Shown: piece after piece, positions 1,595 to 54,535 of the stretch
How the letters are laid out: the number at the start of each line of letters is the position of its first letter
How positions within the stretch are numbered: the stretch's first letter is position 1
IMG/VR virus record: IMGVR_UViG_2693429768_000005
From: a virus
Lineage: Duplodnaviria > Heunggongvirae > Uroviricota > Caudoviricetes
DNA: 55,692 nucleotides
Reading direction: 5' to 3' (one strand)
The notes under the pieces: model-generated
The model's input: only the letters and a program-made list of their open reading frames with translations
What the model was told of the DNA's origin: nothing
Databases searched by the model: none
Position numbers and translations under genes: made by a program

Positions 1595-4264
1595 TTATTT
1601 TTCGCTTCCAGTCAACTTACTGACAAGCGCTTCAAGTTTTGCGATACGCTCATCCATTGCGGCAATGTTGGCGCGTAGGCTGGCGTTTTCTTCTTCCAGT
1701 TCGGTTACGCGGTTATCCGTTTCGCGTGCCACCTGGACAAGTAAACCAGTCACTGCGGCGTAGTCAACATTGAGGTAACGCGTTTCCTCGCGTAACTCGT
1801 TGCCGTCAGTGGTCGGGCCTTGTAACGCTTCACCGTAATGAGTAAACGATCCCACAGCTTCCGGCAGCGCCTCCATTACCTCCTGAGCGATAACGCCAGC
1901 GTAAGGCAGGCCGTTTTCCTTGAGGGTGTAGGTGTACCCGTTCATTTTACGGATGGCTTCAGTTGCATCACCTATAACCTGAATGTTGTCTTTTAAGTCC
2001 CTGTCTGATGATTGGGTAACTGAAGTGCATGTGATAGTGCCTTCAACCGCAAGCGAAGCAGAACCATCGGAAAGGTATTTAGCCACAAACAGCGTTTTTA
2101 ATGATGTTTGTGCGCCGTTTGTATCAACAGCTTTAACCTCATAATTCAGCGGGGATGATGAACCGCCCCATGTCATCACCTGTACGTTTGCCGAGGTTGT
2201 TGCGTAAGCAATATGCCTTATGAAACGTGTGTGCGTGCTATCAAAGATATAATGACCACTAAAATGATTGTCTGCTGTCCATACGTTTGCTGTATTAAGC
2301 GTTGCAAGTTGACACCAATCCTTGATCGTTCCATTTTCAATACTTCTTGCATAGAATGATGAGTTGCGCCCGGCGAACTGGGTAGCATAGTTACCGCTAA
2401 AGGTGACATGAAAACCACCCGCAACGCCAATACCCAAAGGACCATTGTCACTGCCTGCGATTGGCTTAAACTTCTCTACAGCATCCGTATGCTGATCGTT
2501 CCAGTTTTGCCCAGCATTTATGGCGTAACCTTTAGATGATCCTATCAGGCCATTTATGGTTAGTTTGGGCATCGTCATTGATATGTCTTCACCAACGGTA
2601 ATTCCGTTAAACAGACCTACGCGAGCACCACTACAAATATAATGGAGTCCTTCAGTTGTTGCAGAATAAAAACCACAACGCCCCATTCTGAAATCAAACA
2701 TAACCTGTAGGTTTTTATATGAACCTAAGGGGTCTGATACACCCCACGGTATGATCGTTTCTGTATCTTTACCACTATTATATACAACCTGGGCGGTTGG
2801 TACTTGTACTGTTACGCCCACAGGCAAGCGCATTTTAATAGGGAATGCCCTTGCTTCAACAAAAACAAAGAGCAGGTTATCTTTGTCTTTGCTGGAACTA
2901 CAGATAGAATGTAAAGCGATTTCTTTGTCGGTATAACGATTGTAAAAACCGTAACCTGCATCCTTTCTGTCACTCCACCCGCCAGTCCTTACATACCCGG
3001 AAAAGGTGTTACAGTTCATTGGGTAATTACCAGCGCCAGACACTGTAACAATATCGATCTGATAGCCAGTCAGGTAAGCGTTGTAATAATTGGCGTTTAT
3101 AATTATAGGGTAATACTTACCATCCTCAACGCCTTCCGGGGCTTCGATTGTTATCATCTCGCCACCGCCTATGGTTGGGATATTGATGTTTCTCCTTGTC
3201 TGTTCAGCGTTTTTAGGTTTGAAAGAGTCGGCTATAAATTCGCCGTTTATGTTGAGGCTTGCGTATTTGCTCACGCCGCCAGATCTTAAATGCATTGTTA
3301 ACTGGTCTGGCGAAGAAAGGTTTGTCTCAGGGTATAGTGCACCATAAATACGCTCCGATCCTGATGTACCAACCAAAACGCTGGAAAGAATACCTCCCGC
3401 AACCCATCCGGTAGTCACGTCAGTAGCTCTTTTTAGCGATACATTAGCAAACTGAGGACTATTTGAAGACCCAACGCCCAGGTTTGTTCTTGCTGTGTCT
3501 GCATCTCCTGCACCAGTGCCGCCAGCAGAAATTGAAAGCGGTAGATATTTACTAGCCTCTGAGTCGAAACAACCCCACGTTCCTGAATCATAGACGGTAA
3601 GGAATTTATTTGCGTTTTGAGAGCATACGCGTGTTTCTCCTGTTCTTTGAATAAGCCTGTTTACTTCATCCTTGCGTGCGTGACGTGTCCAGTTCGGTCC
3701 TGATGTTGCGACCCATGTGTAAGTATAAAGTGATCGCGTAGACCAACCGACAAAGACGCCTGCATACGAAGGCGATGTATCCTGCTGACAGATAAATCCA
3801 CTCAAAAATGATTCACCAGCCGCTACGGAAGGAAAACCCTTAGTCGTTTCCTTTATGCGCAAAAAGCCAACGTAAGAAGACGGATTGCCTGATATATCGA
3901 CGCAATCTCGCGGCTCTGGACCCAAGCCAATATTGCTGCCATCTATTGCGCTTGATATTTCATCTTCCTTTTCCTGATAAAAACGAAGCGTTTCTGCTAC
4001 ATCCTGGGCAAGTCCATCAACTGAGATCGAGTCAGAAAGCAGAATACTGAATTTTGTCCCGGCAGCGATGGCAGGATTAGCCGCTGGCGTCACTGATAAT
4101 TCAGTACCGCTCTTAATTTCTGTGATGGTAAAGATCTGGATAGGGTTGCTGATGGCAATAAGCGTGCAACCCACACGAATGAGAGAAAGCGGCTCGGAAA
4201 AGTTTGTTCCCGTGCCTGCAACGGTATTGCCATTGATGGCAATTGTTCCAGTTGTGTAAATCAT
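1595..4264 (-). CDS. tail fibre/tailspike with C-terminal peptidase S74 intramolecular chaperone domain
   Basis: 889-aa ORF; C-terminal ~130 aa (DRDLKDNIQVIGD...GYTYT...YAGVIAQEV...coiled coil) matches the self-cleaving chaperone domain of phage tail fibres/endosialidases (family recalled from memory). Confidence 0.75.
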   Translation of the reverse strand: MIYTTGTIAINGNTVAGTGTNFSEPLSLIRVGCTLIAISNPIQIFTITEIKSGTELSVTPAANPAIAAGTKFSILLSDSISVDGLAQDVAETLRFYQEKEDEISSAIDGSNIGLGPEPRDCVDISGNPSSYVGFLRIKETTKGFPSVAAGESFLSGFICQQDTSPSYAGVFVGWSTRSLYTYTWVATSGPNWTRHARKDEVNRLIQRTGETRVCSQNANKFLTVYDSGTWGCFDSEASKYLPLSISAGGTGAGDADTARTNLGVGSSNSPQFANVSLKRATDVTTGWVAGGILSSVLVGTSGSERIYGALYPETNLSSPDQLTMHLRSGGVSKYASLNINGEFIADSFKPKNAEQTRRNINIPTIGGGEMITIEAPEGVEDGKYYPIIINANYYNAYLTGYQIDIVTVSGAGNYPMNCNTFSGYVRTGGWSDRKDAGYGFYNRYTDKEIALHSICSSSKDKDNLLFVFVEARAFPIKMRLPVGVTVQVPTAQVVYNSGKDTETIIPWGVSDPLGSYKNLQVMFDFRMGRCGFYSATTEGLHYICSGARVGLFNGITVGEDISMTMPKLTINGLIGSSKGYAINAGQNWNDQHTDAVEKFKPIAGSDNGPLGIGVAGGFHVTFSGNYATQFAGRNSSFYARSIENGTIKDWCQLATLNTANVWTADNHFSGHYIFDSTHTRFIRHIAYATTSANVQVMTWGGSSSPLNYEVKAVDTNGAQTSLKTLFVAKYLSDGSASLAVEGTITCTSVTQSSDRDLKDNIQVIGDATEAIRKMNGYTYTLKENGLPYAGVIAQEVMEALPEAVGSFTHYGEALQGPTTDGNELREETRYLNVDYAAVTGLLVQVARETDNRVTELEEENASLRANIAAMDERIAKLEALVSKLTGSEK

Positions 4265-11794: not shown

Positions 11795-11892
11795 TTTATC
11801 ACCTTGTCATTTTGTGATCGCCATCACGCTAAATCATGCCAAAACGGTTGATCGCGTTTTTTACAATATGTATATTGTACTCAAAAGGAAGC

Positions 11893-12078
11893 ATGGTTAA
11901 CAAAATGGCGCGGAGGTGTGAAATGGATGATAAGGTGTGGAGGTTGGCGGTGTTCCTTGCGGATGGCAGGAAAATGACTGTGGCCCTGTATAAAGATGAA
12001 GGCGAGGCACTTACCGACGCGCTCTTACTCGCTGAAGACGAACGCGTTTTGGGGTACAGAATCGAACCTGTCAAATGA
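11893..12078 (+). CDS. hypothetical moron protein
   Basis: ORF on opposite strand to tail operon, SD-like AAGGAAG before ATG; part of cassette with own terminator. Confidence 0.35.
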   Translation: MVNKMARRCEMDDKVWRLAVFLADGRKMTVALYKDEGEALTDALLLAEDERVLGYRIEPVK

Positions 12079-12090
12079 GAGGTTAACGAA

Positions 12091-12438
12091 ATGCAAAAAT
12101 ATAGTCTTGATGTGTGGTTAAGTGGTTGCAAGGAGTGTTTCGGATTATTTGATAGCGAAGAGGCAGCTTTGGAAGAAGGAAGGATTCTTGAATGTAGTTT
12201 AGGCCATCCAGTGAAATATGCCGCTAATCCGGTGCAGATAATTGATGAGGTGGAAAACATGAATCCGAAAGATATTAACTTTAACGTCAATGTTGAATTT
12301 GCTGATTCTATGGATCAGTCTTGCCCTGGTGAAATACACGCAAAAGGTTTCCCGGCAGACGATCCGCAAGCAAAACGCGAATACGAAAAAGCTGCGAAAG
12401 ACTTCTGTATCGACAATTTGTCTGCGTTCGATAAATAA
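12091..12438 (+). CDS. hypothetical moron protein (115 aa, Cys-containing, acidic)
   Basis: ORF with GAGAGG SD; no recognisable domain. Confidence 0.4.
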   Translation: MQKYSLDVWLSGCKECFGLFDSEEAALEEGRILECSLGHPVKYAANPVQIIDEVENMNPKDINFNVNVEFADSMDQSCPGEIHAKGFPADDPQAKREYEKAAKDFCIDNLSAFDK

Positions 12439-12447
12439 GGCGACAAC

Positions 12448-12696
12448 ATGGGGCGGCGCAATCACGGTGATTATGTGTACACGTTGAAACAGGCCGCCCG
12501 CCTCGTTGGTTATCATGAACACGAATTTATTGATTTGCTGATTGAGCGCGGGATACTGTACCAGGTATGTTTAACGCTGTACCCTAAAGCGAAATATCTA
12601 CAGGAAAAGTTATTCATCATCATGACGGATGAAAACCAGGTTAATCATTCATTCGTCACGGATAAGGGCGTTAATTATCTGCGTGATAACTTATAG
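12448..12696 (+). CDS. hypothetical moron protein (82 aa, possible HTH)
   Basis: ORF following previous with 9-bp gap; segment LKQAARLVGYHEHEFIDLLIERGIL resembles a DNA-binding helix pair. Confidence 0.4.
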   Translation: MGRRNHGDYVYTLKQAARLVGYHEHEFIDLLIERGILYQVCLTLYPKAKYLQEKLFIIMTDENQVNHSFVTDKGVNYLRDNL

Positions 12697-12827: not shown

Positions 12828-12860
12828 AACCCCGCTTCGCGCGGGGTCGTGTTTATACGC
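12828..12860. terminator. bidirectional rho-independent terminator
   Basis: CCCCGCTTCGCGCGCGGGG hairpin with T-rich tracts on both strands; ends plus-strand moron and the minus-strand M unit. Confidence 0.55.
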
Positions 12861-13050
12861 CATCAACCAAAAATAAAACCTCCTTCCCTTCCCGGGATCT
12901 ACACCCCACGTACCCATCGCCAACGTCGTGAAGATACCATATATCGCCGTTGTCAGCTTTTACAGTAAGGTCGTTGATCTCATAGTCGTCAAACAATGTA
13001 AAAGCGTAAGTTTTGTCAACTACACAAGTCCCGTACATATCAACCCCCAT
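12853..13050 (-). CDS. hypothetical protein (65 aa) downstream of M
   Basis: ORF starting at the M stop; no domain recognised. Confidence 0.35.
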   Translation of the reverse strand: MGVDMYGTCVVDKTYAFTLFDDYEINDLTVKADNGDIWYLHDVGDGYVGCRSREGKEVLFLVDGV

Positions 13051-13403
13051 TAGCCGACAACTTGTTCAAACGTTGCGTTTAGCGTGTACACAGGCCCGTC
13101 TTTAGTCATGCTCCAGCTACGGCAAACAAAAAGCCTTTGCACGTTATCCATCGACGGCGTCCAGTAGAAAGCCTCGACAGCGCCGCGCGCCCTCAAAAAT
13201 GCTTCAGCCTGGATCGCCACGTTTCCACCATCACCACATCCCGCGCTACTGCCTTTGAAAACCAGGGTATAGCTATCAAGCAACGTGTTAATCCCTTTTG
13301 CCTGCCTTTGTTCATAGTTGTCGCCAAGTTTAATCACAGAAACGTTAGGTTCTCTCGTTACCGTGTAGCTTCTTTGTGGTTTCCATATAAAAACTTCTGG
13401 CAT
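13050..13403 (-). CDS. M: minor tail protein M
   Basis: C-terminus ...FYWTP...TFEQVVG resembles lambda gpM (...FLWTP...EFEQVVN); start set at internal ATG. Confidence 0.75.
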   Translation of the reverse strand: MPEVFIWKPQRSYTVTREPNVSVIKLGDNYEQRQAKGINTLLDSYTLVFKGSSAGCGDGGNVAIQAEAFLRARGAVEAFYWTPSMDNVQRLFVCRSWSMTKDGPVYTLNATFEQVVG

Positions 13404-13416
13404 AATACCCACCTCA

Positions 13417-13890
13417 TTACTTGCCGTGATTTTCAAAATATCCATAGCGCAATTCGGCTTCTTTCCTTGCGGCTATGGCGTCACCTACATTTGAATATCG
13501 CCCTACAGCTATTTGCTTCCCGTGGTCGTATATTCTTACAACCCACTTATTGCGCGCCTTATCCCAAGAAATGCCGTTTAATCCGCTTTTATTTGTGCTG
13601 CGCAATGATTGATTCACTGCGTTACCTCTATGTGTAACTAGTCGTAAGTTTTCGATTGCGTTATTTAGTCTGTTGTGATCGATGTGGTCTACCTCCATTC
13701 CTTCTGGTATCGAGCCGTTGTGCATTTCCCATATGATGCGATGCACTTTATGACTCCTGCCGTTAGCCCACACCCGCAAGTATCCATCCGAAGTAAGGCC
13801 ACCCGCGCGATCACCAGCGTGATGCTGGGAGTTTTTTGTCTTCCAATAAATTTCACCTTCTTGATAGTGGAAAATGTCGTTCCAGTTCAT
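13417..13890 (-). CDS. HNH homing-type endonuclease with AP2 DNA-binding domain
   Basis: 157 aa; motifs HRIIWEMHNGSIPEGMEVDHIDHNRLNN (HNH) and GISWDKARNKWVVRI...AVGRY...AIAARKEAE (AP2-like). Confidence 0.8.
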   Translation of the reverse strand: MNWNDIFHYQEGEIYWKTKNSQHHAGDRAGGLTSDGYLRVWANGRSHKVHRIIWEMHNGSIPEGMEVDHIDHNRLNNAIENLRLVTHRGNAVNQSLRSTNKSGLNGISWDKARNKWVVRIYDHGKQIAVGRYSNVGDAIAARKEAELRYGYFENHGK

Positions 13891-13917
13891 AACTTCACTC
13901 TCATAAGTTACATATTG

Positions 13918-14061: not shown

Positions 14062-14217
14062 ATGGAACGCTATGTGGTTGTGATGCTGAACAAAGCATTC
14101 GAACAGGTGGAAGTTGCGATTGTGAAGGGCTTTGATGATGCATTCAAATACGGTCAATTCATGATGAATGCGAAGGAAAACGAGTACCGTGATTTCTTCC
14201 TGAAAGTGGTCAACTAA
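14062..14217 (+). CDS. hypothetical moron protein (51 aa)
   Basis: ATG after AAAGGGGGACAAT; opposite strand to tail operon. Confidence 0.35.
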   Translation: MERYVVVMLNKAFEQVEVAIVKGFDDAFKYGQFMMNAKENEYRDFFLKVVN

Positions 14218-14235
14218 TGGATTGTGGGGTGTGTT

Positions 14236-14490
14236 ATGAAATTGGTGGCGATTGGTAAAAACTTGAAAGCACAGAAAAACGCACAGGACCGGATCATCAA
14301 AAAGGGCAAGGCTTTATTAAATGCTTTCCTGAGAAAAGAGGCCACCCCCAAAAAATTACGCGATGGCTACGGTTATAAATTTGATATTAACCCCGACTGG
14401 CGGTTATTCAGCGAAGATTTAAAGGCGTGGTTAATTATCGACCATCTGGAATATAACAGACACTGTGGGGTTAAAGGGGCGCATAAGTAA
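14236..14490 (+). CDS. hypothetical moron protein (84 aa, basic)
   Basis: ATG after GGGGTG; followed by terminator. Confidence 0.4.
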   Translation: MKLVAIGKNLKAQKNAQDRIIKKGKALLNAFLRKEATPKKLRDGYGYKFDINPDWRLFSEDLKAWLIIDHLEYNRHCGVKGAHK

Positions 14491-14598
14491 GGCGGGCATG
14501 AAGGGCGATAAATTCACCCGGCGGGGAACTGGAATGTTTGACAGGTAATTTTGGATAGGGTGTATCGCGCGGAATGGTTGTTTATAAATACGAAAATA

Positions 14599-14635
14599 GC
14601 CCCGGCATTGTACCGGGGTTTGGTTTATTTGCGGC
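14599..14635. terminator. bidirectional rho-independent terminator between moron and tape-measure gene
   Basis: CCCCGG-cattgta-CCGGGG hairpin with TTTGGTTTATTT on plus and T-rich tract on minus. Confidence 0.6.
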
Positions 14636-17600
14636 GAGGTTGCAACATTCCTCCCGGTCTGGATGATTCGCGGTGTATCAGGCCCATACAGATCTTTTCC
14701 ATATCCTGCTGTAGTTTTTTGGCGTCCTCATCACTCCATCCATTTTGTGGGTAAACACTAATCGGTGCGTTTATACTAACGTTACCGCCGCCCGCACCAC
14801 CAATGTCGCGATTTGATATTATCCTGCCGTTGTCACCCGGAATCATGTACTGCTCGCCGTTTCGAGATTGGAAGATCTCTGGCTTGCCGTGCTCGCCAAC
14901 CCTATAAAGATTGCCGCCATTAACCGCGCCGCCGTTATAGCGAGCACCCGCCAGGCCAAGCGCTTTTGCCCCAGCTAATCCGGTAGCCATCGCCGCTGAC
15001 CCCGCCGTCGCTGCGCCGCCCATTGTTGCCACGCTTGCCAGGTATGCCGGGGTGGACCATGCAGAACTTAACGCCACCGCCTCGCCCATTGCCTTTGCTG
15101 TTGCGGCGGCACTGGCAGCCTCCCCTATTAATTGCTGCTTGACCCATTCAGCGCCCATCTGAACAAGCGTACCGATCACGGATGACAGAATTGTATTGCC
15201 AATGTTAGCAAGCGCCTGTTGCCAACTCTGAGTGCCGTTAACCAGTCCGACAAGCGCGTTTGTTGCGGAACCACTCATTGCATCAACAGTATCACCTAAC
15301 AATTGGTTGCTCATTGACTGCGCTTTATATCGTTCCCATTCAAGGGAAAGCATTTCCTGTGCGTGCGCTTTTTCTTGCTCCCTCATATATTGCTCGGTAG
15401 CGCCTAAATCGGTAAGCATTTGTTTGCGAACAGCCCATTCGTTTTGCGCCTGCTGGATTGGGTCTACCTGCCCGCGCACTTGTAGCTCTTTGTTTACCAG
15501 ATTATCCCAGCTAGCCTGACGTTTGCGTTGTTCCTCGGTTCCAATTAATTCTTTCCATGCCTTATTGTATTGTTCCGCGCTTATTTTCCCGCTTTTAAGT
15601 GCGGCGTTTAGCGCCTCCTGATCCTCTTTTAATTTCCGTTGTGCTGCAGCTTCTACGTTGTATTTGTCTGCAACATTCTGGCCCCGCTTCTCAAGCTCTT
15701 TGCGCAGGCGTTCAGCCTCTTTTAGACGTTTTTTCTCCTCGCTTTCCCCATGACTGGCCTTTCTTTCAGCTTCGGCGCGTTTCTGCTCGGTGTCGTATGC
15801 TTTGGTCATTGTAGCCATGTATTTTTCATACGCTTCCCCGGTCAGGTTTGCTTTCTCAGCCTCACGCTTAAACCCATCAATCGCCTTTTCCCTGCTGGCT
15901 GTTTTGGAGTCGAGTTTTGCCAGTTCCAGGCGGCGGTTTGCCAGATCCATTAGCTCTTGCTGATCTGCGTTAAGTGCGGCTGAAGCGTGTTGCGTTGCTG
16001 CTGCTGCGCGTTCTGCTTCTGTGGTGATTCTTCCGTATGCGTCTGCCACCAACCCTAATGAAGTGGCAAGGGTCTTCATTAGCGGATCTGTATCCTGCAT
16101 AAGCAAAATATATTTGCGCTGCATTTGATTAAGGCGGTCGAGAATATCCTCACGCTGCGCCTCTTCCCTGGTCAGGCGGGCTGTGATTTCCTGATTAGCT
16201 TTCGATAGGTTGGCGTAAGCGCGTGACCCCTCCTCTGCTTTCTCCAGTGCCTGTTTATTCAGCTCTAGCGCCTGCGTGTCCTGGTCAATCTGTTTGTTGA
16301 GACTGACAACGTCTTCCTCTAACTGACCCATTGATATTTGTAGTTTATCTGCGCCAGCCAGTTTAGCCGCCTTGCTCATTCGCTCCAGTGATTCGGTACT
16401 AACATCCACTGAATCAGCAAGGTTGCGGTTTGCCTCTGCCGTTTGATCTACGTGATCTACATATGCTGTCAACCCGTAAACAGCAAGCATTAACGCGCCA
16501 GGGATACCACCAATCGCGCCCAGAGTAGCGCTAAATGCTGTTTTTAGTAGTCCCGCATTAGTCGCCGCCGCAGTGTGGGCCGCAGCAAGGCGCTGCTCTG
16601 CCGCAGTAAGGGCGTTTGATGCCGCCGTGTTCTGTGCTTTGGCTACAGCCAATTCTTTCAGCGTCTGAACTTCGAATTTTGTTCCGGCGTTTGCCGCAGC
16701 ATAAGCCTGCGCCTCTCTCAGCCTTGCCGCCGCCGCCGCTGCTGATTGCCGTGCTGATACCACCTGAGCGTTAGCTAGCGCCAATTCACTCTGAGCGGCC
16801 TGCCGTGCCGCTGCCGTTTGTGCCCTGGTTGCCTGAGCGTTAGTTAATGCCTCTGCTGTTGCAGCTACGAATTTATTTACCACTCTGCCACCCATCACAG
16901 TGGCAAGGCCAATAAATGCAGTAGCTATTTCGTTAAGGTTTTCTGACAGGGTTACAACTGCCGAATTAAAAGCACCAATCCCGCCCATAATTGACGAATT
17001 GCTGCCGAAAAATTTAGCTGCGTTGTTGCCTGCAACAGTGAAAGCCTCCTGCATAGTTGGGGTGAGTTTAGAAAACTCAGCATCAACCTCCGCTTTCATT
17101 TCCTTAAGGGCTTTAATGATAGCTTCACGGGTGATCTTCCCTTCTGCTGCCATCTTGCGCATTTCTGCCGACGATACGCCCAATGATTTAGCCAAACCCT
17201 CTGACAGCCTGGTAGCGTTTTCTGTAACGGAGTTAAATTCATCGCCATTCAAAACACCTTTGGCGAGGGATTGACCCAACTGACGGATCCCGCCTTCTGC
17301 TTCAGCGGCAGAAGCGCCAGAAATGCGGAATGTTTTGTTAATGGTTTCAACCATATCACCAAGTGCTTGCGTCGATAAACCAGCGTCGCGCGTCGAGCGC
17401 TCTAATTTACCGTAAAGATCTGCCGTAGCATCAAGATCGCTTCGTGAATTTTGCGCGATCTGAAATACACGCTGATTAACGTCTGCCAGTGATTCACCAG
17501 CACGAACGCTATTGATTAGCCTGTTATTCACCTCCTGCCAGGCGTTTGCATACTCAATGATTTTTTTTGCTGCCATTGCAGCACCCAGGGCACTGGCAAT

Positions 17601-17768
17601 CGAGGATAGCTTTGACAGTGACTTACTTGCCTGAGTGGCGGCACTATCCACGCGCTCCAAATCCTTTTCCATTTTGCCAGTTGCGCGATCTACCTCGCGC
17701 TGAACAGTCAGAAGCTGACCCGTTTTTGCATCAACCTCGTAATAAATTGTGCCTAAATTTGTTGACAT
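14625..17768 (-). CDS. H: tail tape measure protein
   Basis: 1047 aa, Ala/Gln-rich coiled-coil-like protein upstream of M-L-K-I-J; typical tape-measure composition. Confidence 0.9.
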   Translation of the reverse strand: MSTNLGTIYYEVDAKTGQLLTVQREVDRATGKMEKDLERVDSAATQASKSLSKLSSIASALGAAMAAKKIIEYANAWQEVNNRLINSVRAGESLADVNQRVFQIAQNSRSDLDATADLYGKLERSTRDAGLSTQALGDMVETINKTFRISGASAAEAEGGIRQLGQSLAKGVLNGDEFNSVTENATRLSEGLAKSLGVSSAEMRKMAAEGKITREAIIKALKEMKAEVDAEFSKLTPTMQEAFTVAGNNAAKFFGSNSSIMGGIGAFNSAVVTLSENLNEIATAFIGLATVMGGRVVNKFVAATAEALTNAQATRAQTAAARQAAQSELALANAQVVSARQSAAAAAARLREAQAYAAANAGTKFEVQTLKELAVAKAQNTAASNALTAAEQRLAAAHTAAATNAGLLKTAFSATLGAIGGIPGALMLAVYGLTAYVDHVDQTAEANRNLADSVDVSTESLERMSKAAKLAGADKLQISMGQLEEDVVSLNKQIDQDTQALELNKQALEKAEEGSRAYANLSKANQEITARLTREEAQREDILDRLNQMQRKYILLMQDTDPLMKTLATSLGLVADAYGRITTEAERAAAATQHASAALNADQQELMDLANRRLELAKLDSKTASREKAIDGFKREAEKANLTGEAYEKYMATMTKAYDTEQKRAEAERKASHGESEEKKRLKEAERLRKELEKRGQNVADKYNVEAAAQRKLKEDQEALNAALKSGKISAEQYNKAWKELIGTEEQRKRQASWDNLVNKELQVRGQVDPIQQAQNEWAVRKQMLTDLGATEQYMREQEKAHAQEMLSLEWERYKAQSMSNQLLGDTVDAMSGSATNALVGLVNGTQSWQQALANIGNTILSSVIGTLVQMGAEWVKQQLIGEAASAAATAKAMGEAVALSSAWSTPAYLASVATMGGAATAGSAAMATGLAGAKALGLAGARYNGGAVNGGNLYRVGEHGKPEIFQSRNGEQYMIPGDNGRIISNRDIGGAGGGNVSINAPISVYPQNGWSDEDAKKLQQDMEKICMGLIHRESSRPGGMLQPRRK

Positions 17769-24261: not shown

Positions 24262-25148
24262 TCTTCGCCATATTTAGCGTGCGCAACCTTATAGTTTTCT
24301 TGCGCCCGTTCTAATATTCGTTTGTTTAATATATTACCGTCTTCGTCAACTAATACGGTAATAGTGCTGCATTTGCAGTTAATTGAATTAGGGGATCTAC
24401 TCCACCATTCGCGCTGCTCTTCTATGGTGTATGTTTTCCCGTGTCGCTGTGCGTGTGATAGCCTGGTAGTCGGTGACAATGCCGAAATGTGCATTTGCAT
24501 AGTGCGCAAGTTAAGCTCATCCGATGCGGCTTCTGCCTCATCCATACGCGCTGTGCGTAACGCTGTGCATATTTCAGTACGGGCAATACGTTTGCACCTG
24601 TATAGCGGTAATTGCGTTTCCTGCTGCAATGTGCGCGCTATTTCTAGTGGGTTTAGGCCACGGGCCATGCCTTCGGTTAATCGGCGGGCCATATCCTTCT
24701 TGATCTGTGCGGTAAGCCCGCGCATCTCTTCAAATACACGGGTACGAACCAGGGCAAGGCGTGTGCGATATGTCTGACTGGTTAATACCGCAGACACTTC
24801 AGGGTAAGCCCTGGAATATGTGACTGACTGGTTAGCGAGGTTGGCATATTCCTGAGAAGTGCCGCGCTGATATGCCACCTTCACGTATTCCTGCCAGAAC
24901 CAGAAGTTTTCCGGGTCTGTTAACTCGAATATTTCATCAATCATGTCGCTGGCGTCTTCCAGCAAATCATGTAATTCGTCGATGTAGATCTGGAAGGTGT
25001 ATTTTTTATTAACAGCCAGGGTATATTGTATTCTGTCCAGTATGGCGATATATGGATCGGCTACTTTCTTCAGGCAGGCTTTAAAACGCTTGATAGCACC
25101 AGACCTTAACTTCCCTGTCATGGTCGGGTCTTCGGTGTTAGATGGCAT
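24252..25148 (-). CDS. head morphogenesis protein (Mu F-like)
   Basis: start set at ATG overlapping portal stop; family recalled from memory. Confidence 0.6.
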   Translation of the reverse strand: MPSNTEDPTMTGKLRSGAIKRFKACLKKVADPYIAILDRIQYTLAVNKKYTFQIYIDELHDLLEDASDMIDEIFELTDPENFWFWQEYVKVAYQRGTSQEYANLANQSVTYSRAYPEVSAVLTSQTYRTRLALVRTRVFEEMRGLTAQIKKDMARRLTEGMARGLNPLEIARTLQQETQLPLYRCKRIARTEICTALRTARMDEAEAASDELNLRTMQMHISALSPTTRLSHAQRHGKTYTIEEQREWWSRSPNSINCKCSTITVLVDEDGNILNKRILERAQENYKVAHAKYGEDWE

Positions 25149-26508
25149 TATCGCGGCTGGAGGTATTCGCCTGATTATCTTCTTCACCCTCATCATCGTC
25201 CTCCTCTTCCGTTTCTACTTCACTGGCTGGGCCATCGTATCCGGCAGCCTCGCGGATCTCGTCACCGCTAAATATTTCTTCACCAGTAGCCAGACAAGCC
25301 TGATTGATTTGTGCCATTTTGTCTGCGGCTTCCAGTAGCTCTGCTTTGGTCATGGCGTTAAGGTCGTCCCATAGCACTGATACATCTACTGGCATACTGA
25401 TAAGGCGTAGATCTGCCATCTTGCGGAACAGATCTTCAATCTCGCCACCGATTTCCTCCCTGCGGGTCATGCAGCGGCTGTTGAAGTAACGCAGGTCTTC
25501 GGTTGATGCACGCTCTCCCTGTTGGTTCCCAACCAGGATGCGGGTTGGAATATCAACACCAGCGGCGGCGGTTTGCAGGTTTACATCATAGGTTGATGAC
25601 GGGTCAGACACGGCAGTAACCAGCGGGCTTACTGTCGCACCCTGTAACGCCATCATTACGTCATTACCCTTATTCATTTCAGCCGTAGCCTCATTGAATC
25701 TTTCGCGTAACTCTGTAACGTCGCAATCGTATGTTGCAGCCAGGGAACGGAAGTCAATCTCTTTATCGAACGAAATAGCAAGCTGACGCGCTGCGTTTTT
25801 CAGGAATGATTCACCACTACCGCCTTCCACTTTTTCCAGTGATACGAATGCGTTGTAGGAAGGTTCAAGGAAAGCGATGACATCATCAGAATAGTCGCCA
25901 AAGATGAATATGCGGTCAGGGTGGATCTTTCTGGCAATGGTCTTACTGTTAATGCGTTCTTTGTATTCCCACCATGTCGGCAGGCCATAATTTTCACTGT
26001 CCGGGTCTTCTTCGAACTCCTTCGGTGTAAGAGCGCCAGCCCACACAGGGGTAAATTTGGCAATACCTACGCCTTTTGTCACTGGCTGATCCCACGGCTG
26101 GTTATCTCTGACATGAATCAACAGACCAGCATAACGACCAATGAGGCGGCGGCGATCACATTCAGCAACAGTGCGCCAAAATCTGTTGTTAAATTTCTTC
26201 TTGATTTCTCTTTCCCACGGTGTTTCCTTTTTCGCTTTCTCGTCTTCAGTTCCCTCAATCATCTTTGGCTTGGTGCGCCAGCAAGTCGTAACAATCTTTT
26301 CTACAGCACCGTGAGCGATGCCGCCGCGTCTGTACAGTTTGTATAGATCGTGGTACGTGATCTCTTCTTTGAATCCGTATTCACTCCACGCAGCATCACG
26401 TTTGGCATCTATCCCCATAGTGAATGGGTTGGCTGCGGCATAGCGGGCGTAGGCCGCCTGGCGTTGTGACAAGGCAGCATTAACCGCCAATTCTAAATTG
26501 GATGGCAT
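25138..26508 (-). CDS. portal protein
   Basis: about 456 aa, acidic C-terminus; follows terL; start set at ATG after AGGAG. Confidence 0.7.
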   Translation of the reverse strand: MPSNLELAVNAALSQRQAAYARYAAANPFTMGIDAKRDAAWSEYGFKEEITYHDLYKLYRRGGIAHGAVEKIVTTCWRTKPKMIEGTEDEKAKKETPWEREIKKKFNNRFWRTVAECDRRRLIGRYAGLLIHVRDNQPWDQPVTKGVGIAKFTPVWAGALTPKEFEEDPDSENYGLPTWWEYKERINSKTIARKIHPDRIFIFGDYSDDVIAFLEPSYNAFVSLEKVEGGSGESFLKNAARQLAISFDKEIDFRSLAATYDCDVTELRERFNEATAEMNKGNDVMMALQGATVSPLVTAVSDPSSTYDVNLQTAAAGVDIPTRILVGNQQGERASTEDLRYFNSRCMTRREEIGGEIEDLFRKMADLRLISMPVDVSVLWDDLNAMTKAELLEAADKMAQINQACLATGEEIFSGDEIREAAGYDGPASEVETEEEDDDEGEEDNQANTSSRDNAI

Positions 26509-26523
26509 AATGTTTACTCCTGA

Positions 26524-26560
26524 ATACATGTTTACGCGTTGCTACGCGAAAAATAGAAAA
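26524..26560. repeat. 34-bp conserved element, copy 2 (tandem TACGCG repeats)
   Basis: ATACATGTTTACGCGTTGCTACGCGAAAAATAGAAAA between terL and portal. Confidence 0.5.
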
Positions 26561-41258: not shown

Positions 41259-41358
41259 CTTGTTTTTCCTCCGCGCCGTAAACCTTTTGATTTCAGTTCA
41301 CAAAACGGATTTACGATCACAACACAAAATGTATTTCTATGTGATCGCCATCACTATG

Positions 41359-41979
41359 TTAATGAAGTACGCGTTTTTCAGGTTCTGGCATTAGCTGTGC
41401 GTCTTTCCGCGCGTCATTAAGCACAGCTATAGCTACCTGTACACCTAAATCATTTGCGCGCATATTATTGCCAACCATTTCGCCGTAAAATAATGGCATG
41501 ATCGCCTTTACTTCTTCCTCTGTGTGACCTTCATCAATACACTTCTGTAACGCTTTAGCCTCGAATACTTTTTTCATTACGCCACGCACAGAATACAGCG
41601 CAACGCTACCCATATGATTTTCATCTAACGGGAAAATAACAGCACTTCCGAACGCCAGCGGGTCAATCTCTTCCGGTACTGGTACTCGCCCAAATTCTTC
41701 TTCCATTCGTTTTACGAAAGTGAGGCAGAAGACATAACGAGCTACGGCAGTTTTTTCTTCAGCGTTTAAAGACACATAATCGCGGATCGACGCGTCCATC
41801 ACAATATCAACAATCTGTAACGCCAGATTCAAATCAGCGTCATACGCACCAGCTTCCATATCTTTTAATACTTCGTGATAATCCTTCGTTTCCACTTCAT
41901 GAAAACTTGCATCTTCAGCATAACGAGTGATTAACATGCCATCGCTGCCGAGTGAATAAGCTGTTTTGATGTCGTTCAT
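41359..41979 (-). CDS. hypothetical acidic protein (206 aa)
   Basis: ORF; no domain recognised. Confidence 0.4.
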   Translation of the reverse strand: MNDIKTAYSLGSDGMLITRYAEDASFHEVETKDYHEVLKDMEAGAYDADLNLALQIVDIVMDASIRDYVSLNAEEKTAVARYVFCLTFVKRMEEEFGRVPVPEEIDPLAFGSAVIFPLDENHMGSVALYSVRGVMKKVFEAKALQKCIDEGHTEEEVKAIMPLFYGEMVGNNMRANDLGVQVAIAVLNDARKDAQLMPEPEKRVLH

Positions 41980-45553: not shown

Positions 45554-46201
45554 TTATGGCAGGTTTACGATCTTCGCATCAACTACCACGCCTATGATTT
45601 TTGATTCTGGATTCATAGGGATTGGCGGATACAGCGGATTGAGCGAACGTAAAAGCCTTTGACCTCCATCAATAATCAACTGTTTAAACGTCGGTATCTG
45701 CCCTTCCTCAAGCTGGGCTATAACCAGTTTGCCGTCAATAGCTGGCGCGTGCGGGTCCACGAGTATCATCGTCCCCGCCGGGATGCTCAACCCCTGCGGC
45801 GCGTTCATTGATTCACCTTTGGCAACCAGCCAGTAACTATCATCTGAACAAATAACGCTAGTCGTAACGTGTGGTAATGCTGATCGCCTTGTGTCATCCA
45901 TATTGTTTACTGTATCCTTCCAGTCAATAACCGGGTAACTACCTAAATCACGCGGCGGTGCGGCCTGAAGTGTATTAGAAACAGAATCATCAATGACCAT
46001 ACCATCATGTGTAACAGTGAACTGCCGACGACCAAGCGCCCGCATAATCCGCGCAATATCTTCAAGATTTGGCTCGCGGCGACCGTTCAGCCAGTGTGAC
46101 AGGCCGCCTTTAGTTATCCCCATGAGATCTGCGAGTGAATCCTGACTCATGCCCTGCGCCCGCATGAGCTGCTTTGCTAAGTCATACCATTTTGTTTTCA
46201 T
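45554..46201 (-). CDS. cI: CI-like repressor (HTH plus S24 LexA-type peptidase domain)
   Basis: 215 aa; N-terminal HTH (SQDSLADLMGITKGGLSHWLNGRREP) and C-terminal autoprotease region with Ser (KGESM) and Lys (TFKQL). Confidence 0.85.
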   Translation of the reverse strand: MKTKWYDLAKQLMRAQGMSQDSLADLMGITKGGLSHWLNGRREPNLEDIARIMRALGRRQFTVTHDGMVIDDSVSNTLQAAPPRDLGSYPVIDWKDTVNNMDDTRRSALPHVTTSVICSDDSYWLVAKGESMNAPQGLSIPAGTMILVDPHAPAIDGKLVIAQLEEGQIPTFKQLIIDGGQRLLRSLNPLYPPIPMNPESKIIGVVVDAKIVNLP

Positions 46202-46506
46202 GTCGCTACCCTATAACCTCAAAAAGTTTGATGCAAGTCACAAAACGTGTATTTTAAGCCTTGATCTTAAAATTCCATTTTGTAAACTTGCAGACAAGGT
46301 AAGGCCATACTTGCAAAGACGCAAGGAAAAAGATAACGGAAGGCACAAAAAGGCACATACCTTAAGCTCTTTAAAAATCCGGTGTCGCTGCGAAGCGAAA
46401 AACAAATATCACGCAACGGCGGGATCTGTTGAGCGGTCAGTCACTGCTATCTAATGCTAATGGGATGCCCGCCCGCGCGTTCATTTTAACCATAGGAGAA
46501 AATACA

Positions 46507-46761
46507 ATGAGCATGAACATGATTAGCGAAGTATGGAAAGTAAAACTTAACAGCCCGATTCAAAAACTGGTCTTAATGGCTCTGGCTGAAAAGGCAGATA
46601 ACCGCCGTCACGTCATGGTATCACGACAAGAAATTGCAAAAATGTGTGAACTTCCTGTTCATACGGTACATGATGCCTTCGCCGCGTTAATGCATAAAGG
46701 GTTTGTTTGTCGTCTTGATGCGTTCAGTGATGTCTATGTAGTGATGTTACCGGAGGAATGA
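46507..46761 (+). CDS. putative HTH DNA-binding regulator (Cro/CII position)
   Basis: first rightward ORF after immunity intergenic region; GGAGAA SD; helix-turn-helix-like segment. Confidence 0.4.
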   Translation: MSMNMISEVWKVKLNSPIQKLVLMALAEKADNRRHVMVSRQEIAKMCELPVHTVHDAFAALMHKGFVCRLDAFSDVYVVMLPEE

Positions 46762-48953: not shown

Positions 48954-50084
48954 ATGTCACAAAGAAAAATCAGCGATGAGCAATTGATCGCTGAATATAA
49001 CAACGGTTTAACGTACAAGCAGATCGCTGAAAAATATGGCATGTCAAAACGCAACGTCGAGCGGCTAGGCGCAAAACTGGCGAAACGCGGTTTAATATCC
49101 ACGCGTCGCGCACCGGGTTTTGGCGTCAATGCTGAGTCATTGCTCGTCGATAAGGATGGCAATGTGATCATGCGCTGGATTAAAACAGCCCGTGACCGCG
49201 ACGAAATGGAACAGTTAATGGAAGCGGCCCGCGACGCTTTCACGGATGAAATACCACGCGCGGAGGCTGTGCCAGTGCCTGAAATTGATTTTCAAAAAAG
49301 CCTAGCCCTTTATCCGGTGTTTGATCTGCATATCGGGGCGCTTGCTCATAAAGCTGAATGCGGCGAGAGCTACGACACTGGGATCGCTGAGCGCGTGTTG
49401 AATGACTTCTTTGACTACGCTGTTGGCGCTGCTCCGATGTCTGAAAAAGCCGTACTGCTCCTCGGTGGCGATCTGCTTCATTCTGACGGTATGGTCCCGG
49501 TGACGCCAATAAGTGGGCACATTCTTGATCAAGATAGTCGCTACGCAAAACTTGTTTATGTGGCGATCCGGTCTGTCCGGCGGGCGGTAGGTAAAATGTT
49601 GTTAAATCATAAGGATGTTGAAATCCAGGTGTTATCAGGCAATCACGATCAGTCTGGTATGATTTGGCTACGTGCGGCGCTGGCGGCTTTTTACGAAGAT
49701 GAACCGCGCGTGACGGTTGATGTGTCACCTGCTATCGTCCACCACACGCAGTACGGCAAAACATTCCTTGCTTACCACCACGGGCACACTATCAAAAAGC
49801 CGGAAAATTTATTGTCTGCTTGCGTAGCTGACTGGCGTGAGGATTTCGGCAAGTCGAAATATGTTTACGTCCATGTCGGACATTTGCACCATAAATCAGT
49901 AACAGAATCATCTATAGGCATAGTTGAACACCACGGCACGTTAGCGGGCAAAGACGCTTATTCAACTAATGGAGGATGGAGATCGCAACGTTGCGCTGCG
50001 GTTATCCTTTACAGTCCTGATTATGGCGAAATTGGTCGCTTTGTATATAGGCCTGAAATGGTGGGGTGTCATGATGTGGGATGA
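48954..50084 (+). CDS. HTH-metallophosphoesterase fusion protein
   Basis: N-terminal HTH-like LTYKQIAEKYGMSKRNVER; C-terminal phosphoesterase motifs DLH, GDLLH, GNHD, HHGH, GHLHH. Confidence 0.55.
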   Translation: MSQRKISDEQLIAEYNNGLTYKQIAEKYGMSKRNVERLGAKLAKRGLISTRRAPGFGVNAESLLVDKDGNVIMRWIKTARDRDEMEQLMEAARDAFTDEIPRAEAVPVPEIDFQKSLALYPVFDLHIGALAHKAECGESYDTGIAERVLNDFFDYAVGAAPMSEKAVLLLGGDLLHSDGMVPVTPISGHILDQDSRYAKLVYVAIRSVRRAVGKMLLNHKDVEIQVLSGNHDQSGMIWLRAALAAFYEDEPRVTVDVSPAIVHHTQYGKTFLAYHHGHTIKKPENLLSACVADWREDFGKSKYVYVHVGHLHHKSVTESSIGIVEHHGTLAGKDAYSTNGGWRSQRCAAVILYSPDYGEIGRFVYRPEMVGCHDVG

Positions 50085-50577
50085 TTTATTTACATATAGC
50101 GACGGCGTTCTATATTGGTCTTGTAACCGTGCAAATAACAAAATAAAAGCAGGTAGCGTGGCTGGATGTAAACATTATCGCGGATATTGGACTGTACGCG
50201 TTAATGGTATTTGTTGCACATGGCGTCACCGCATTATCTGGGAAATGTTTAACGGCCCTATTCCTGATGGAATGGAAATAGATCACATAAATCATATACC
50301 TGGTGACGATAGAATCGAAAACTTAAGGATGGTGACAAGGAAGGAGAATAACAGAAACAAAACAATGCCATCAAGTAATACTAGCGGATGCGTTGGCGTT
50401 ACGTGGAACAAGAAAACCAATAAATGGCGTGCGCAAATAGGTATAAGGGGGTCTGATGGGAAAAAGAAAACAATATACGTTTATTACGGTGACTCATTTG
50501 ATGATGCCGTAAAAGCAAGAAAAGAAGCTGAAAGAATGTATAACTTTCATAGCAATCACGGTATTTCTTTACCCTGA
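50071..50577 (+). CDS. HNH homing-type endonuclease with AP2 domain (second copy)
   Basis: HRIIWEMFNGPIPDGMEIDHINH plus AP2-like GVTWNKKTNKWRAQI; start overlaps upstream stop. Confidence 0.8.
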   Translation: MMWDDLFTYSDGVLYWSCNRANNKIKAGSVAGCKHYRGYWTVRVNGICCTWRHRIIWEMFNGPIPDGMEIDHINHIPGDDRIENLRMVTRKENNRNKTMPSSNTSGCVGVTWNKKTNKWRAQIGIRGSDGKKKTIYVYYGDSFDDAVKARKEAERMYNFHSNHGISLP

Positions 50578-50611
50578 ATATTCCATTTTGTAAACCGGAG
50601 GCAATAACATA

Positions 50612-52027
50612 ATGGTAACTGAGCAAATGAACTCACTACGGCAGGAACGTGAAGCGTCAGTTATCGGCGGGCTGCTGTTAGGCGGCCTAACTCCTAACGC
50701 ACAAGATGTTCTCGCCACTCTTGATCCTGAAGTGTTCACGATTCCGCTGTATAAACGTGCGTTTGAAGTTATCCGGGCGCAAGCCAGAAACAGAAATCTT
50801 ATCGACGCGTTATTGGTTGGCGATGAGATTGGCAATGAAAACTTTGTACCGCTAATGCAAACGGCGCGATCGTGCCCGTCTGCTGCCAACCTGAAGGGAT
50901 ACGCACAGCTACTACGTGAAGAGCACCAGCGGCGGCAGATGTTGGAACTCATCGACGATATGCGCTACAAACTGGAAACGGGGACGCTTGAGGTCGTCAA
51001 AGAGACGATGAAAGACTTTGATTCCCGGTATTCAAAATTGAAGGTAACGAAAGACAAGATCATTCCGGTGTTGTTGCGCGATGCGGTACAGGAATACACG
51101 GAGGTGTTAAGCAAACGCATGGAATGCGGTGTCAATTCTGACAACATCAAAACAGGGATAGAACCACTCGACGAAATGTTAGGCGGCATTAACGCTACTG
51201 ATCTGGTGCTTCTCGCCGGGCGCCCTGGGTCTGGTAAATCTGCGTTGGCGCTGGCAATTGCCCGCGCTGCTGCTGAACGCCCTTACCCTGGCAGCAAGGA
51301 TCAGCGGGTTGGCGTTTTGTTCTTCACGCTTGAAATGTCACTCGATCAGATGACTGAACGCGCTATAGCTGGCGCTGGTAATTTATCAACCGACTGTCTG
51401 CGTAATCCGGTAAAACTTGATGATGAGGGGTGGGCGCATGTTGGTCAGGGTATGAGCGCACTTGCTAATCTTGACGTGTGGATCGTTGACGCATCGCAGT
51501 TAACGGTTGAGGAAATACGCGCCACAACGGAACGGATGAAACAGGAGCATCCCAACCTGGGTATGGTAATGATTGACTACATCGGGTTGATGAAGCTGGC
51601 TAAGGCTGAACGTCATGATCTCGCCGTAGGGCAATTATCATGGTCGTTGAAGATGATGGCGAAAGAATTGCGCGTACCGGTGTTGGCGCTGGCGCAATTA
51701 TCCCGCCGCGTTGAGGAACGACCGAACAAGCGTCCTAACAATTCTGATCTGCGCGATTCCGGTAATCTTGAGCAGGACGCTGACAGGATAATCATGGTAT
51801 ACCGCGATGGCTACTACGATGAGCAGTCTGTAGCCCGCGAATATATGGAAATCATTGTATCTAAAAACCGTCACGGCAAATCTGGCACTGTTTACCAGCG
51901 GTTTGATGACAACGGCAATATCTTACCATGCGACCAGGCCCGCGCGGCTGCGGCGTGTATTCAGTCTATGAATCATCGTACAAGCAGATTTAACCAACGA
52001 AACAACCAGAATAACGCATCCTTTTAA
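50612..52027 (+). CDS. replicative DNA helicase (DnaB family)
   Basis: 471 aa; Walker A GRPGSGKS, DnaB-like N- and C-domains. Confidence 0.85.
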   Translation: MVTEQMNSLRQEREASVIGGLLLGGLTPNAQDVLATLDPEVFTIPLYKRAFEVIRAQARNRNLIDALLVGDEIGNENFVPLMQTARSCPSAANLKGYAQLLREEHQRRQMLELIDDMRYKLETGTLEVVKETMKDFDSRYSKLKVTKDKIIPVLLRDAVQEYTEVLSKRMECGVNSDNIKTGIEPLDEMLGGINATDLVLLAGRPGSGKSALALAIARAAAERPYPGSKDQRVGVLFFTLEMSLDQMTERAIAGAGNLSTDCLRNPVKLDDEGWAHVGQGMSALANLDVWIVDASQLTVEEIRATTERMKQEHPNLGMVMIDYIGLMKLAKAERHDLAVGQLSWSLKMMAKELRVPVLALAQLSRRVEERPNKRPNNSDLRDSGNLEQDADRIIMVYRDGYYDEQSVAREYMEIIVSKNRHGKSGTVYQRFDDNGNILPCDQARAAAACIQSMNHRTSRFNQRNNQNNASF

Positions 52028-54317: not shown

Positions 54318-54535
54318 TGGATAAGATCGGGACAATACTTATTAACCGTGAGCAAGTGCAAAAAATGTTAGGCGGGCTTAGCAAGTCCGCCTTTTTTAAG
54401 CTCGTTAAAAAATGGAAAGAAGCGGGAACTCCTTTCCCTGAACCTGTAAAGGGGATGCCAGCATTAAAGCGCGGGGGATCTCTTTACCGTTATCAGGACG
54501 TTATTTCATTTTGTAAATCGATGGGCTTCATGTAG
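54317..54535 (+). CDS. excisionase/AlpA-like HTH protein
   Basis: 72 aa; adjacent to integrase; HTH-like INREQVQKMLGGLSKSAFFKLVKK. Confidence 0.45.
   Translation: MDKIGTILINREQVQKMLGGLSKSAFFKLVKKWKEAGTPFPEPVKGMPALKRGGSLYRYQDVISFCKSMGFM

Follow-up and report, generated by a model that had tools for sequence, protein, structure and literature searches.

Two genes for small HNH nucleases interrupt otherwise conserved gene modules of an Escherichia coli prophage, and the question that they raise is whether they are homing endonucleases that reached these positions through their own activity or cargo carried there by recombination in which the nucleases had no part. To address it, we analyzed the IMG/VR virus record IMGVR_UViG_2693429768_000005 over its whole length of 55,692 nt (hereafter, the window), which holds a prophage of the mEp021-like (mEpimmI) group of Nus-dependent non-lambdoid coliphages. 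One gene (HNH1) precedes the minor tail gene M on the minus strand, and the other (HNH2) follows an exonuclease gene on the plus strand; both open reading frames (ORFs) exist exactly as delimited in a first-pass annotation made from the sequence alone, which had read them as an invasion by homing endonucleases (Table 1). Beside each HNH gene, the conserved neighbour contains a divergent patch that is completely linked to the nuclease gene; this linkage is our main new observation. The linked patches strengthen the earlier reading as positive signs of gene conversion of the homing type, and homing-type mobility of both genes, as free-standing I-HmuI-like enzymes of the HNH_3 'HNN' class with an AP2-like DNA-binding domain, is probably the right explanation and the likeliest of those weighed below.

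Precise insertions and linked divergent patches

Comparison with HNH-less relatives, the check that the first-pass annotation had proposed, defined the insertion borders to the base at both sites. At site 1, positions 13404-13902 have no counterpart in mEp515, mEp013 and mEp021, and homology of the flanks returns within three bases. Read in gene orientation, the empty allele is ...AACTTAT-AGGGGGAATC-ATG(M) and the filled allele is ...AACTTAT-GAGAGTGAAGTT-ATG(HNH1)...TAA-TGAGGTGGGTATT-ATG(M). The insert replaces the native 10-nt ribosome-binding spacer of M (AGGGGGAATC), bringing new Shine-Dalgarno sequences for both HNH1 (GAGAGTGAAGTT-ATG) and M (TGAGGTGGGTATT-ATG), and the junction comparison revealed no repeat flanking it. 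At site 2, an imperfect repeat of the target lies on both sides of the insert (TTTGTATATAGGCCTGAA ... TTTCTTTACCCTGAA), and the right border is sharp at 50568/50569. The HNH-less exonucleases end in ...GRFVYYPE(F/Y)SIL and a stop, with the helicase start 18 nt further on, and the exonucleases of HNH2 carriers end in ...GRFVYRPEMVGCHDVG and a stop, the tail in the window being RPEMVGCHDVG. The stop codon of HNH2 is taken from the original ...TTACCCTGA. In mEp010, a 1-nt indel and substitutions after the HNH2 core (~1930-1996, corresponding to 50570-50611 of the window) abolish the usual stop, so that the annotated homing endonuclease extends up to the helicase start codon and has a variant C-terminus at the right junction.

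We then compared the window in sliding windows with nine HNH-less alleles per site. At site 1, the beginning of M that abuts HNH1 is only 72-80% identical to the nine HNH-less alleles. Against the prophage of E. coli strain 190, mismatches fall at 23 of 104 positions in this patch and at 20 of 798 in the flanks (Fisher p = 4e-12); identity is 96-100% over 12850-13299 and mostly 90-100% upstream of the insert, in contrast to 74-80% over 13300-13403. All eight flank positions fixed between the two HNH1-carrying haplotypes and the nine HNH-less alleles lie at 13305-13389, and a ninth fixed position, 13901, lies within the junction of the insert. At site 2, where the patch occupies the end of the exonuclease gene, comparison with the HNH-less prophage of E. 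coli N921, a Swiss clinical isolate, gave mismatches at 58 of 192 patch positions and 14 of 1287 flank positions (Fisher p = 6e-42), and the differences fixed between four HNH2-carrying and nine HNH2-less alleles (24 of 24) lie at 49857-50045. Over 49300-49756 and 50607-51300, the window and the N921 prophage do not differ at all (100% identity); over 49757-49855, the window is identical to strain 190, from which it diverges starting exactly at 49856, after 107 mismatch-free bases. The HNH2 carriers agree at 96-97% over the patch, including mEp010, whose outer flanks differ by 7-12%, and patch and gene recur jointly on no fewer than three backgrounds of flanking sequence (window, mEp515/mEp021, mEp010).

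Neither patch allele was found apart from its gene: the M patch allele without HNH1 was absent from the 32 matching prophages of complete E. coli genomes (all at or below 81% identity), and the exonuclease patch allele without HNH2 was absent from the 32 matching E. coli prophages (one match at 80-90%, the rest below 80%). On the side away from the patch, each insert ends sharply and gives way to an ordinary flank. The unit of transfer is therefore the HNH gene plus the adjoining piece of the conserved gene, a cassette of ~600 nt at site 1 (13300-13902) and ~710 nt at site 2 (49856-50568). As a separate observation, the switch from N921-identical to strain 190-identical sequence at 49757-49855 is a case of fine-scale mosaicism adjoining the HNH2 cassette.

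The empty sites are the majority allele, which agrees with the earlier description of free-standing HNH genes inserted into conserved modules. Our survey covered 5,426 complete E. coli genomes, seven related phage records and a collection of 5.8 billion proteins. Relatives of the site-1 region are present in 33 of the E. coli genomes, and all matches across the site are split in two and cover only 62% of the query, the HNH1 stretch being missing there. HNH1 DNA had no match in the complete genomes except short HNH-core stretches in other genes, and HNH1 is absent from all seven phage records. The HNH2 insert is missing from 34 of 34 spanning E. coli prophages and from four of the related phages; mEp515, mEp021 and mEp010 carry it at the same site, with proteins 97, 97 and 93.5% identical to that of the window. 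In the protein collection, exact copies of HNH1 occur on 19 contigs. Five of these places, Logan contigs retrieved as DNA, had been considered as separate backgrounds because their gene calls differed; this was rejected when BLAST showed a single phage at 99.9% identity or more. The remaining places were merged by the look-up because their neighbouring proteins are mostly shared. One independent relative was found, a protein 95% identical to HNH1 on a 90%-identical Logan contig, where it also lies directly upstream of M. All other relatives in the collection are at most 54% identical, and IMG/VR holds no close relative (all at or below 46%). The annotated phages and complete E. coli genomes that were searched contain no member of the HNH1 lineage.

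Nuclease identity and site-bound lineages

Both proteins match the Pfam family HNH_3 (PF13392) far above its gathering cut-off of 24.8 bits (HNH1, E = 8e-23, 80.3 bits; HNH2, E = 1.2e-21, 76.5 bits), and therefore not by chance, and both match PHROG 99 'HNH endonuclease' (phrog_99) with E values of 1e-60 to 1e-65. For HNH2, whose mechanical ORF begins at 49969, we chose the ATG at 50071 as the start that matches the homologues. The sole PDB sequence match of HNH1 is I-HmuI (1u3e; E = 7e-7, ~24% identity), and HNH2 has no significant match among PDB sequences. In the alignment, D68, H69 and N90 of HNH1 fall on D74, H75 and N96 of I-HmuI, the residues that serve, reportedly from the I-HmuI structure paper, as metal ligands and general base. 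The catalytic Asp-His pair and the metal-binding Asn, together with N81 (HNH1 numbering), are invariant in an alignment of 54 homologues that includes HNH2, so the catalytic residues of both window proteins are intact. Of the two findings that would have contradicted the first-pass annotation, conservation of both genes in all relatives without any HNH-less allele and loss of catalytic HNH residues, neither was made. The AlphaFold model of HNH1 (pLDDT 85.5) has 1u3e as its top Foldseek match (E = 2.8e-5). The C-terminus of the model contains strands 107-110, 115-122 and 125-132 and helix 135-148, that is, a three-stranded antiparallel sheet on one helix, and its last ~60 residues match the AP2 domains 3igm, 7et4, 7wq5 and 1gcc in Foldseek over 55-67 columns (probability 0.99-1.0, E values of only 0.01-0.08). 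Judged by this predicted fold, though not by the Pfam sequence threshold, 'HNH-AP2' is a fair description.

Scans of the window with Rfam (including group I and group II introns) and for tRNAs gave no match, and we therefore see no intron context for either gene. HNH1 lies between genes. HNH2, which had been described as sitting between the metallophosphoesterase (exonuclease) and DnaB genes with an overlap of the upstream stop, does overlap that stop, by 14 nt; it lies, however, inside the last 8 exonuclease codons, out of frame with that ORF, and not in an intergenic gap. Promoter and terminator scans revealed no dedicated promoter for HNH1 or HNH2, and match counts stayed at the level of shuffled sequence, with the exception of bidirectional terminators that bracket the M unit. 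Selection was estimated by the Nei-Gojobori method as the ratio of non-synonymous to synonymous divergence (dN/dS), which is 0.075 (dS 0.29) for HNH1 against the 95%-identical Logan copy and 0.072 (dS 0.42) for HNH2 against mEp010. A ratio of ~0.07 over such substantial divergence indicates that both proteins have been kept functional and are not decaying relics.

HNH1 and HNH2 share 44% protein identity and are the only two HNH_3 copies in the window, as determined by tBLASTn of both proteins. The relative mEp515 carries four HNH_3 genes: one between the exonuclease and DnaB genes, one between two head genes, one on the opposite strand in the island between tape measure gene and M, and one between tail genes I and J, the last also present in mEp021. 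Together with the HNH1 site of the window, this makes five polymorphic HNH sites in the phage group. Across the mEp021-like phages, copies at the same site are 93-100% identical and copies at different sites 26-52%; these identities indicate that HNH1 and HNH2 represent independent lineages, each bound to its site. Three of the five sites are empty in the window; the HNH_3 genes that occupy them in relatives span 30511-30999, 41328-41834 and 45978-46544 of mEp515 and 2805-3371 of mEp021.

Outside the group, the nearest relatives of HNH2 (62-65% amino-acid identity) belong to the virulent Drexlerviridae phages ACG-M12 and C119, where they sit directly downstream of an orthologous 'DNA repair exonuclease' gene (55% identical to that of the window at the protein level). 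The ACG-M12 exonuclease ends in ...GRFICRPKMFG, closer to the RPEMVGCHDVG tail of the HNH2 carriers than to the HNH-less YPEYSIL, and has the patch-specific residues YVY and SQR in common with the HNH2-linked allele. Over the whole patch, the resemblance to the ACG-M12 orthologue is marginal (59% against 54-57% amino-acid identity), and we regard it as suggestive, not as proof. A copy in Citrobacter phage K1M, 54% identical to HNH2, has a different gene context, and HNH1 is ~51% identical to many copies in other phages that have no common context.

Probable homing and its alternatives

Homing of the two genes would proceed as follows. When an HNH-carrying phage and an HNH-less relative meet in one cell, through co-infection or infection of a lysogen, the enzyme would nick or cut the HNH-less allele within the adjacent conserved gene, the target being the 5' end of M for HNH1 and the exonuclease 3' end for HNH2. 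Since I-HmuI nicks DNA, the likely starting lesion would be a nick that is turned into a break at replication. Recombinational repair from the HNH-carrying genome would then copy the nuclease gene and the neighbouring stretch of the conserved gene, of which the carrier's version is diverged and presumably uncleavable. Each cassette would mend the disruption that it causes, HNH1 with a new ribosome-binding site for M and HNH2 with a new C-terminal tail and stop for the exonuclease, and would ride on transcription of the host operon. The sequences show anatomy and a population pattern: the identity of the genes, their intact catalytic residues, precise presence or absence, linkage to a divergent flank patch, lineages bound to their sites, and purifying selection. 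Cleavage, the position of the target, immunity of the patch and biased inheritance are what we infer from them.

This scheme has precedents of several kinds. Like I-HmuI of Bacillus phage SPO1 (PDB 1u3e), HNH1 has an N-terminal beta-hairpin region, an HNH_3 'HNN' core and the catalytic Asp-His with a metal-binding Asn; unlike I-HmuI, which is intron-encoded and has a helix-turn-helix C-terminus, the window proteins are free-standing and have the AP2-like three-strand-plus-helix C-terminus. An AP2-HNH class is said to go back to Magnani et al. in 2004. HNN-AP2 endonucleases are multi-copy free-standing genes in T1, Rtp, T5 and the Xanthomonas phages Xp10, OP1 and Xop411 (PMC2248197); the window pair has the same architecture and the same free-standing, multi-copy habit of siphoviruses, whereas the carriers named are virulent and the genome here is a temperate prophage. 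The Xanthomonas phage study concluded that transmission is sequence-independent and to random locations (PMC2248197), in contrast to the binding of each lineage here to one site with a linked flank patch. In the intronless homing of T-even phages, a free-standing nuclease cuts a neighbouring gene of the nuclease-less genome, at a target displaced from its insertion point, and repair co-converts flanking markers, which results in local marker exclusion (PMC2988022). The T4 Seg (GIY-YIG) and Mob (HNH, for example MobE) genes lie between conserved genes as HNH1 and HNH2 do, although Mob proteins combine HNH with zinc-finger-type C-termini and the T4 activity was shown by experiment, whereas activity is inferred here. 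In phage ICP1, HNH-3 and AP2-associated HNH genes of 'HEG islands' bracket essential genes, including tail genes, at recombination boundaries (Barth, Dunham & Seed 2023, PMC10448857). Both window cassettes show similarly sharp identity steps, although ICP1 is a Vibrio myovirus of another phage group with other HNH lineages. The pattern around HNH1 and HNH2 matches both T4-type intronless homing and the location of nuclease genes at recombination boundaries.

Several points weigh against homing. First, the AP2 assignment falls below the Pfam AP2 (PF00847) gathering score of 33.3 bits for both HNH1 (19.2 bits, E = 1.5e-3) and HNH2 (23.0 bits, E = 9.6e-5); some homologues in a large protein database carry a precomputed PF00847 match. 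Second, no donor of the M 5' patch was found in the complete E. coli genomes or phage records (none above 81%). Third, the patches alter amino acids as well as silent sites, and therefore look like alleles imported from a diverged donor and not like purely silent immunity mutations; such a pattern would arise from any recombination, nuclease-driven or not. Fourth, the diversity of HNH1 carriers comes down to two haplotypes, the window clone and one Logan contig, and with n = 2 the fixed differences at site 1 could represent one ancient recombination inherited by descent. Last, the sequences by themselves do not tell gain from loss.

The likeliest alternative is passive mosaicism, by which the HNH genes would be accessory cargo from homologous or illegitimate recombination between diverged phages, with the nuclease uninvolved in its own transfer; the enzyme may then have another role, such as attack on competing phage genomes or DNA processing. 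The mEp021-like phages are indeed highly mosaic near both sites, with variable opposite-strand gene islands between tail genes, the non-synonymous patch changes are those expected of imported alleles, and the low dN/dS reflects selection on the protein while being silent on which function is selected. Nonetheless, we consider passive mosaicism unlikely, given that an HNH lineage keeps to a single site and a single neighbour gene (HNH2 even across unrelated phage families), that the linkage of patch and gene is complete in about 40 genomes, that identical borders recur in different backgrounds, and that the protein family is the classical homing-endonuclease class of phages. Less probable still is the presence of both genes in the common ancestor of the mEp021-like phages, with the empty sites as precise deletions. 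The lineages are old at their sites, as the dS values of 0.29 (HNH1 against the Logan copy) and 0.42 (HNH2 against mEp010) attest, and the imperfect direct repeat around HNH2 could in principle mediate deletion. Yet the empty alleles are the large majority and mutually diverse while having the same native M spacer (with minor variation) or the exonuclease tail YPE(F/Y)SIL, no repeat flanks HNH1, and no decayed HNH remnants were seen at the empty sites of the alleles examined; above all, a deletion would not also restore a patch of 100-190 nt to the common allele. That one copy recently arose from the other within the prophage by duplication or transposition, as the first-pass annotation had suggested in taking the paralogues as a sign of ongoing intragenomic mobility, is scarcely credible and was rejected on the identity matrix: the two proteins are alike in domain architecture, but their 44% identity is no closer than that of either to hundreds of copies in unrelated phages, each being closer to copies elsewhere, DNA similarity is limited to a ~60-115-nt HNH-core stretch seen only against the copies of other phages, and near-identical orthologues of each gene occupy its own site in other genomes.

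Terminase-associated HNH proteins of the HK97 gp74 type are encoded beside the terminase, and cos cleavage requires them. HNH1 and HNH2 are likewise small phage-encoded HNH proteins; unlike the gp74 type, they lie far from the presumed terminase ORFs (terminase-sized, at ~26.6-28.6 kb), and viable plaque-forming relatives lack HNH1, HNH2 or both. A terminase-helper role was rejected in view of this position and dispensability.

If homing is the explanation, a further, tentative possibility is that the HNH2 lineage, in following the exonuclease 3' end both in virulent T1-like Drexlerviridae and in temperate mEp021-like phages and carrying a piece of the exonuclease gene along, may have moved core-gene alleles between lytic and temperate families, and that both cassettes might in addition serve as weapons, by which the essential-gene allele of a competitor is overwritten once a related phage superinfects the lysogen.

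Free-standing HNH homing endonucleases of phages are well established, and our finding, an ordinary example of the kind, changes no concept; new here is the linkage of HNH gene and patch, and the homing reading is sharpened by this linkage, by the cassette borders and by the association with one presumed target gene across phage families. The published comparison of the mEpimmI phages makes no mention of HNH genes or homing, though its six phages differ at no fewer than five HNH sites. The mEp021/mEpimmI phages can be grown on E. coli K-12, and there are natural pairs with and without an HNH gene, some 100% identical outside a ~700-nt cassette, which yield base-level predictions of the mobile unit, the target and the immunity determinants. 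The abundant HNH-AP2 class thereby becomes directly testable in a temperate phage, and because the published description of these phages omits the HNH genes, the value of the system is mainly that of a tractable experimental one.

Gene neighbourhood of the two sites

The prophage is flanked by chromosomal abgT (1-1446) and its own integrase gene (54493-55692), with ogt beyond the latter, as seen in an identical contig. The closest complete phage is mEp515, which covers 88% of the tail stretch at 92% identity and 84% of the replication stretch at 94%. Table 1 lists the features around the two sites. The start of M was set at 13403 by its homologues (117 aa in all relatives) in place of the longest-ORF start at 13445; HNH1 therefore ends 13 nt before M, without overlap.

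Table 1. Coordinates of the HNH genes, their insertions and linked patches, and the neighbouring features in the window
Feature	Position	Strand	Basis or remark
HNH1 coding sequence, 157 aa	13417-13890	-	HNH_3 nuclease and AP2-like C-terminal domain; D68/H69/N90
HNH1 insertion relative to HNH-less alleles	13404-13902	-	Junction alignments with mEp515, mEp013, mEp021 and 6 E. coli prophages
HNH1-linked divergent patch	13300-13403	-	First ~104 nt of tail gene M, abutting HNH1
HNH2 coding sequence, 168 aa	50071-50577	+	HNH_3 nuclease and AP2-like C-terminal domain; D71/H72/N93
HNH2 insertion, 521 nt	50048-50568	+	Comparison with HNH-less mEp554, mEp013, MagusPhagus and six prophages; in last 8 exonuclease codons
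HNH2-linked divergent patch	49856-50047	+	Last 192 nt of exonuclease gene upstream of insert
Minor tail protein M, 117 aa	13050-13403	-	Pfam Phage_min_tail, E = 1.9e-28; immediately downstream of HNH1, presumed target gene
51-aa ORF	14062-14217	+	PHROG 29810; between tape measure gene and HNH1/M
ParE-like toxin gene	14224-14490	+	Pfam PF24732, E = 4e-11; partner of 51-aa ORF
Bidirectional terminator-like hairpin	14598-14620		Closes the unit of 51-aa ORF and ParE-like toxin gene
Tape measure protein	14625-17768	-	Neighbour on one side of HNH1
DNA-repair exonuclease/metallophosphoesterase-like gene, 376 aa	48954-50084	+	PHROG 704, E = 7e-143; RefSeq homologue names; presumed HNH2 target gene
Replicative DnaB-type helicase	50612-52027	+	Downstream neighbour of HNH2; ribosome-binding site unaffected by insertion

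The first-pass annotation had placed HNH1 between the tape measure gene and M with a plus-strand moron beside it. The neighbours are as described; the moron, consisting of the 51-aa ORF, which could be an antitoxin, and the ParE-like toxin gene, is no part of the insertion, because both are also present in HNH-less relatives. A second plus-strand island of three small genes (11836-12696) lies between tail genes L and M, with a hairpin at 12828-12848; its last gene (12448-12696) carries the annotation KilAC-domain antirepressor in relatives. In this phage group, two plus-strand islands thus divide the tail operon into three minus-strand blocks, and bidirectional terminator-like hairpins mark the limits of each island. 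In the head module, a protein of ~460 aa encoded at 15965-17335 of the E. coli strain 190 prophage (~25138-26529 of the window) bears the RefSeq name 'anti-CBASS protein Acb1 family protein', and, flanked by terminase and minor head protein, it occupies the position expected for a portal protein.

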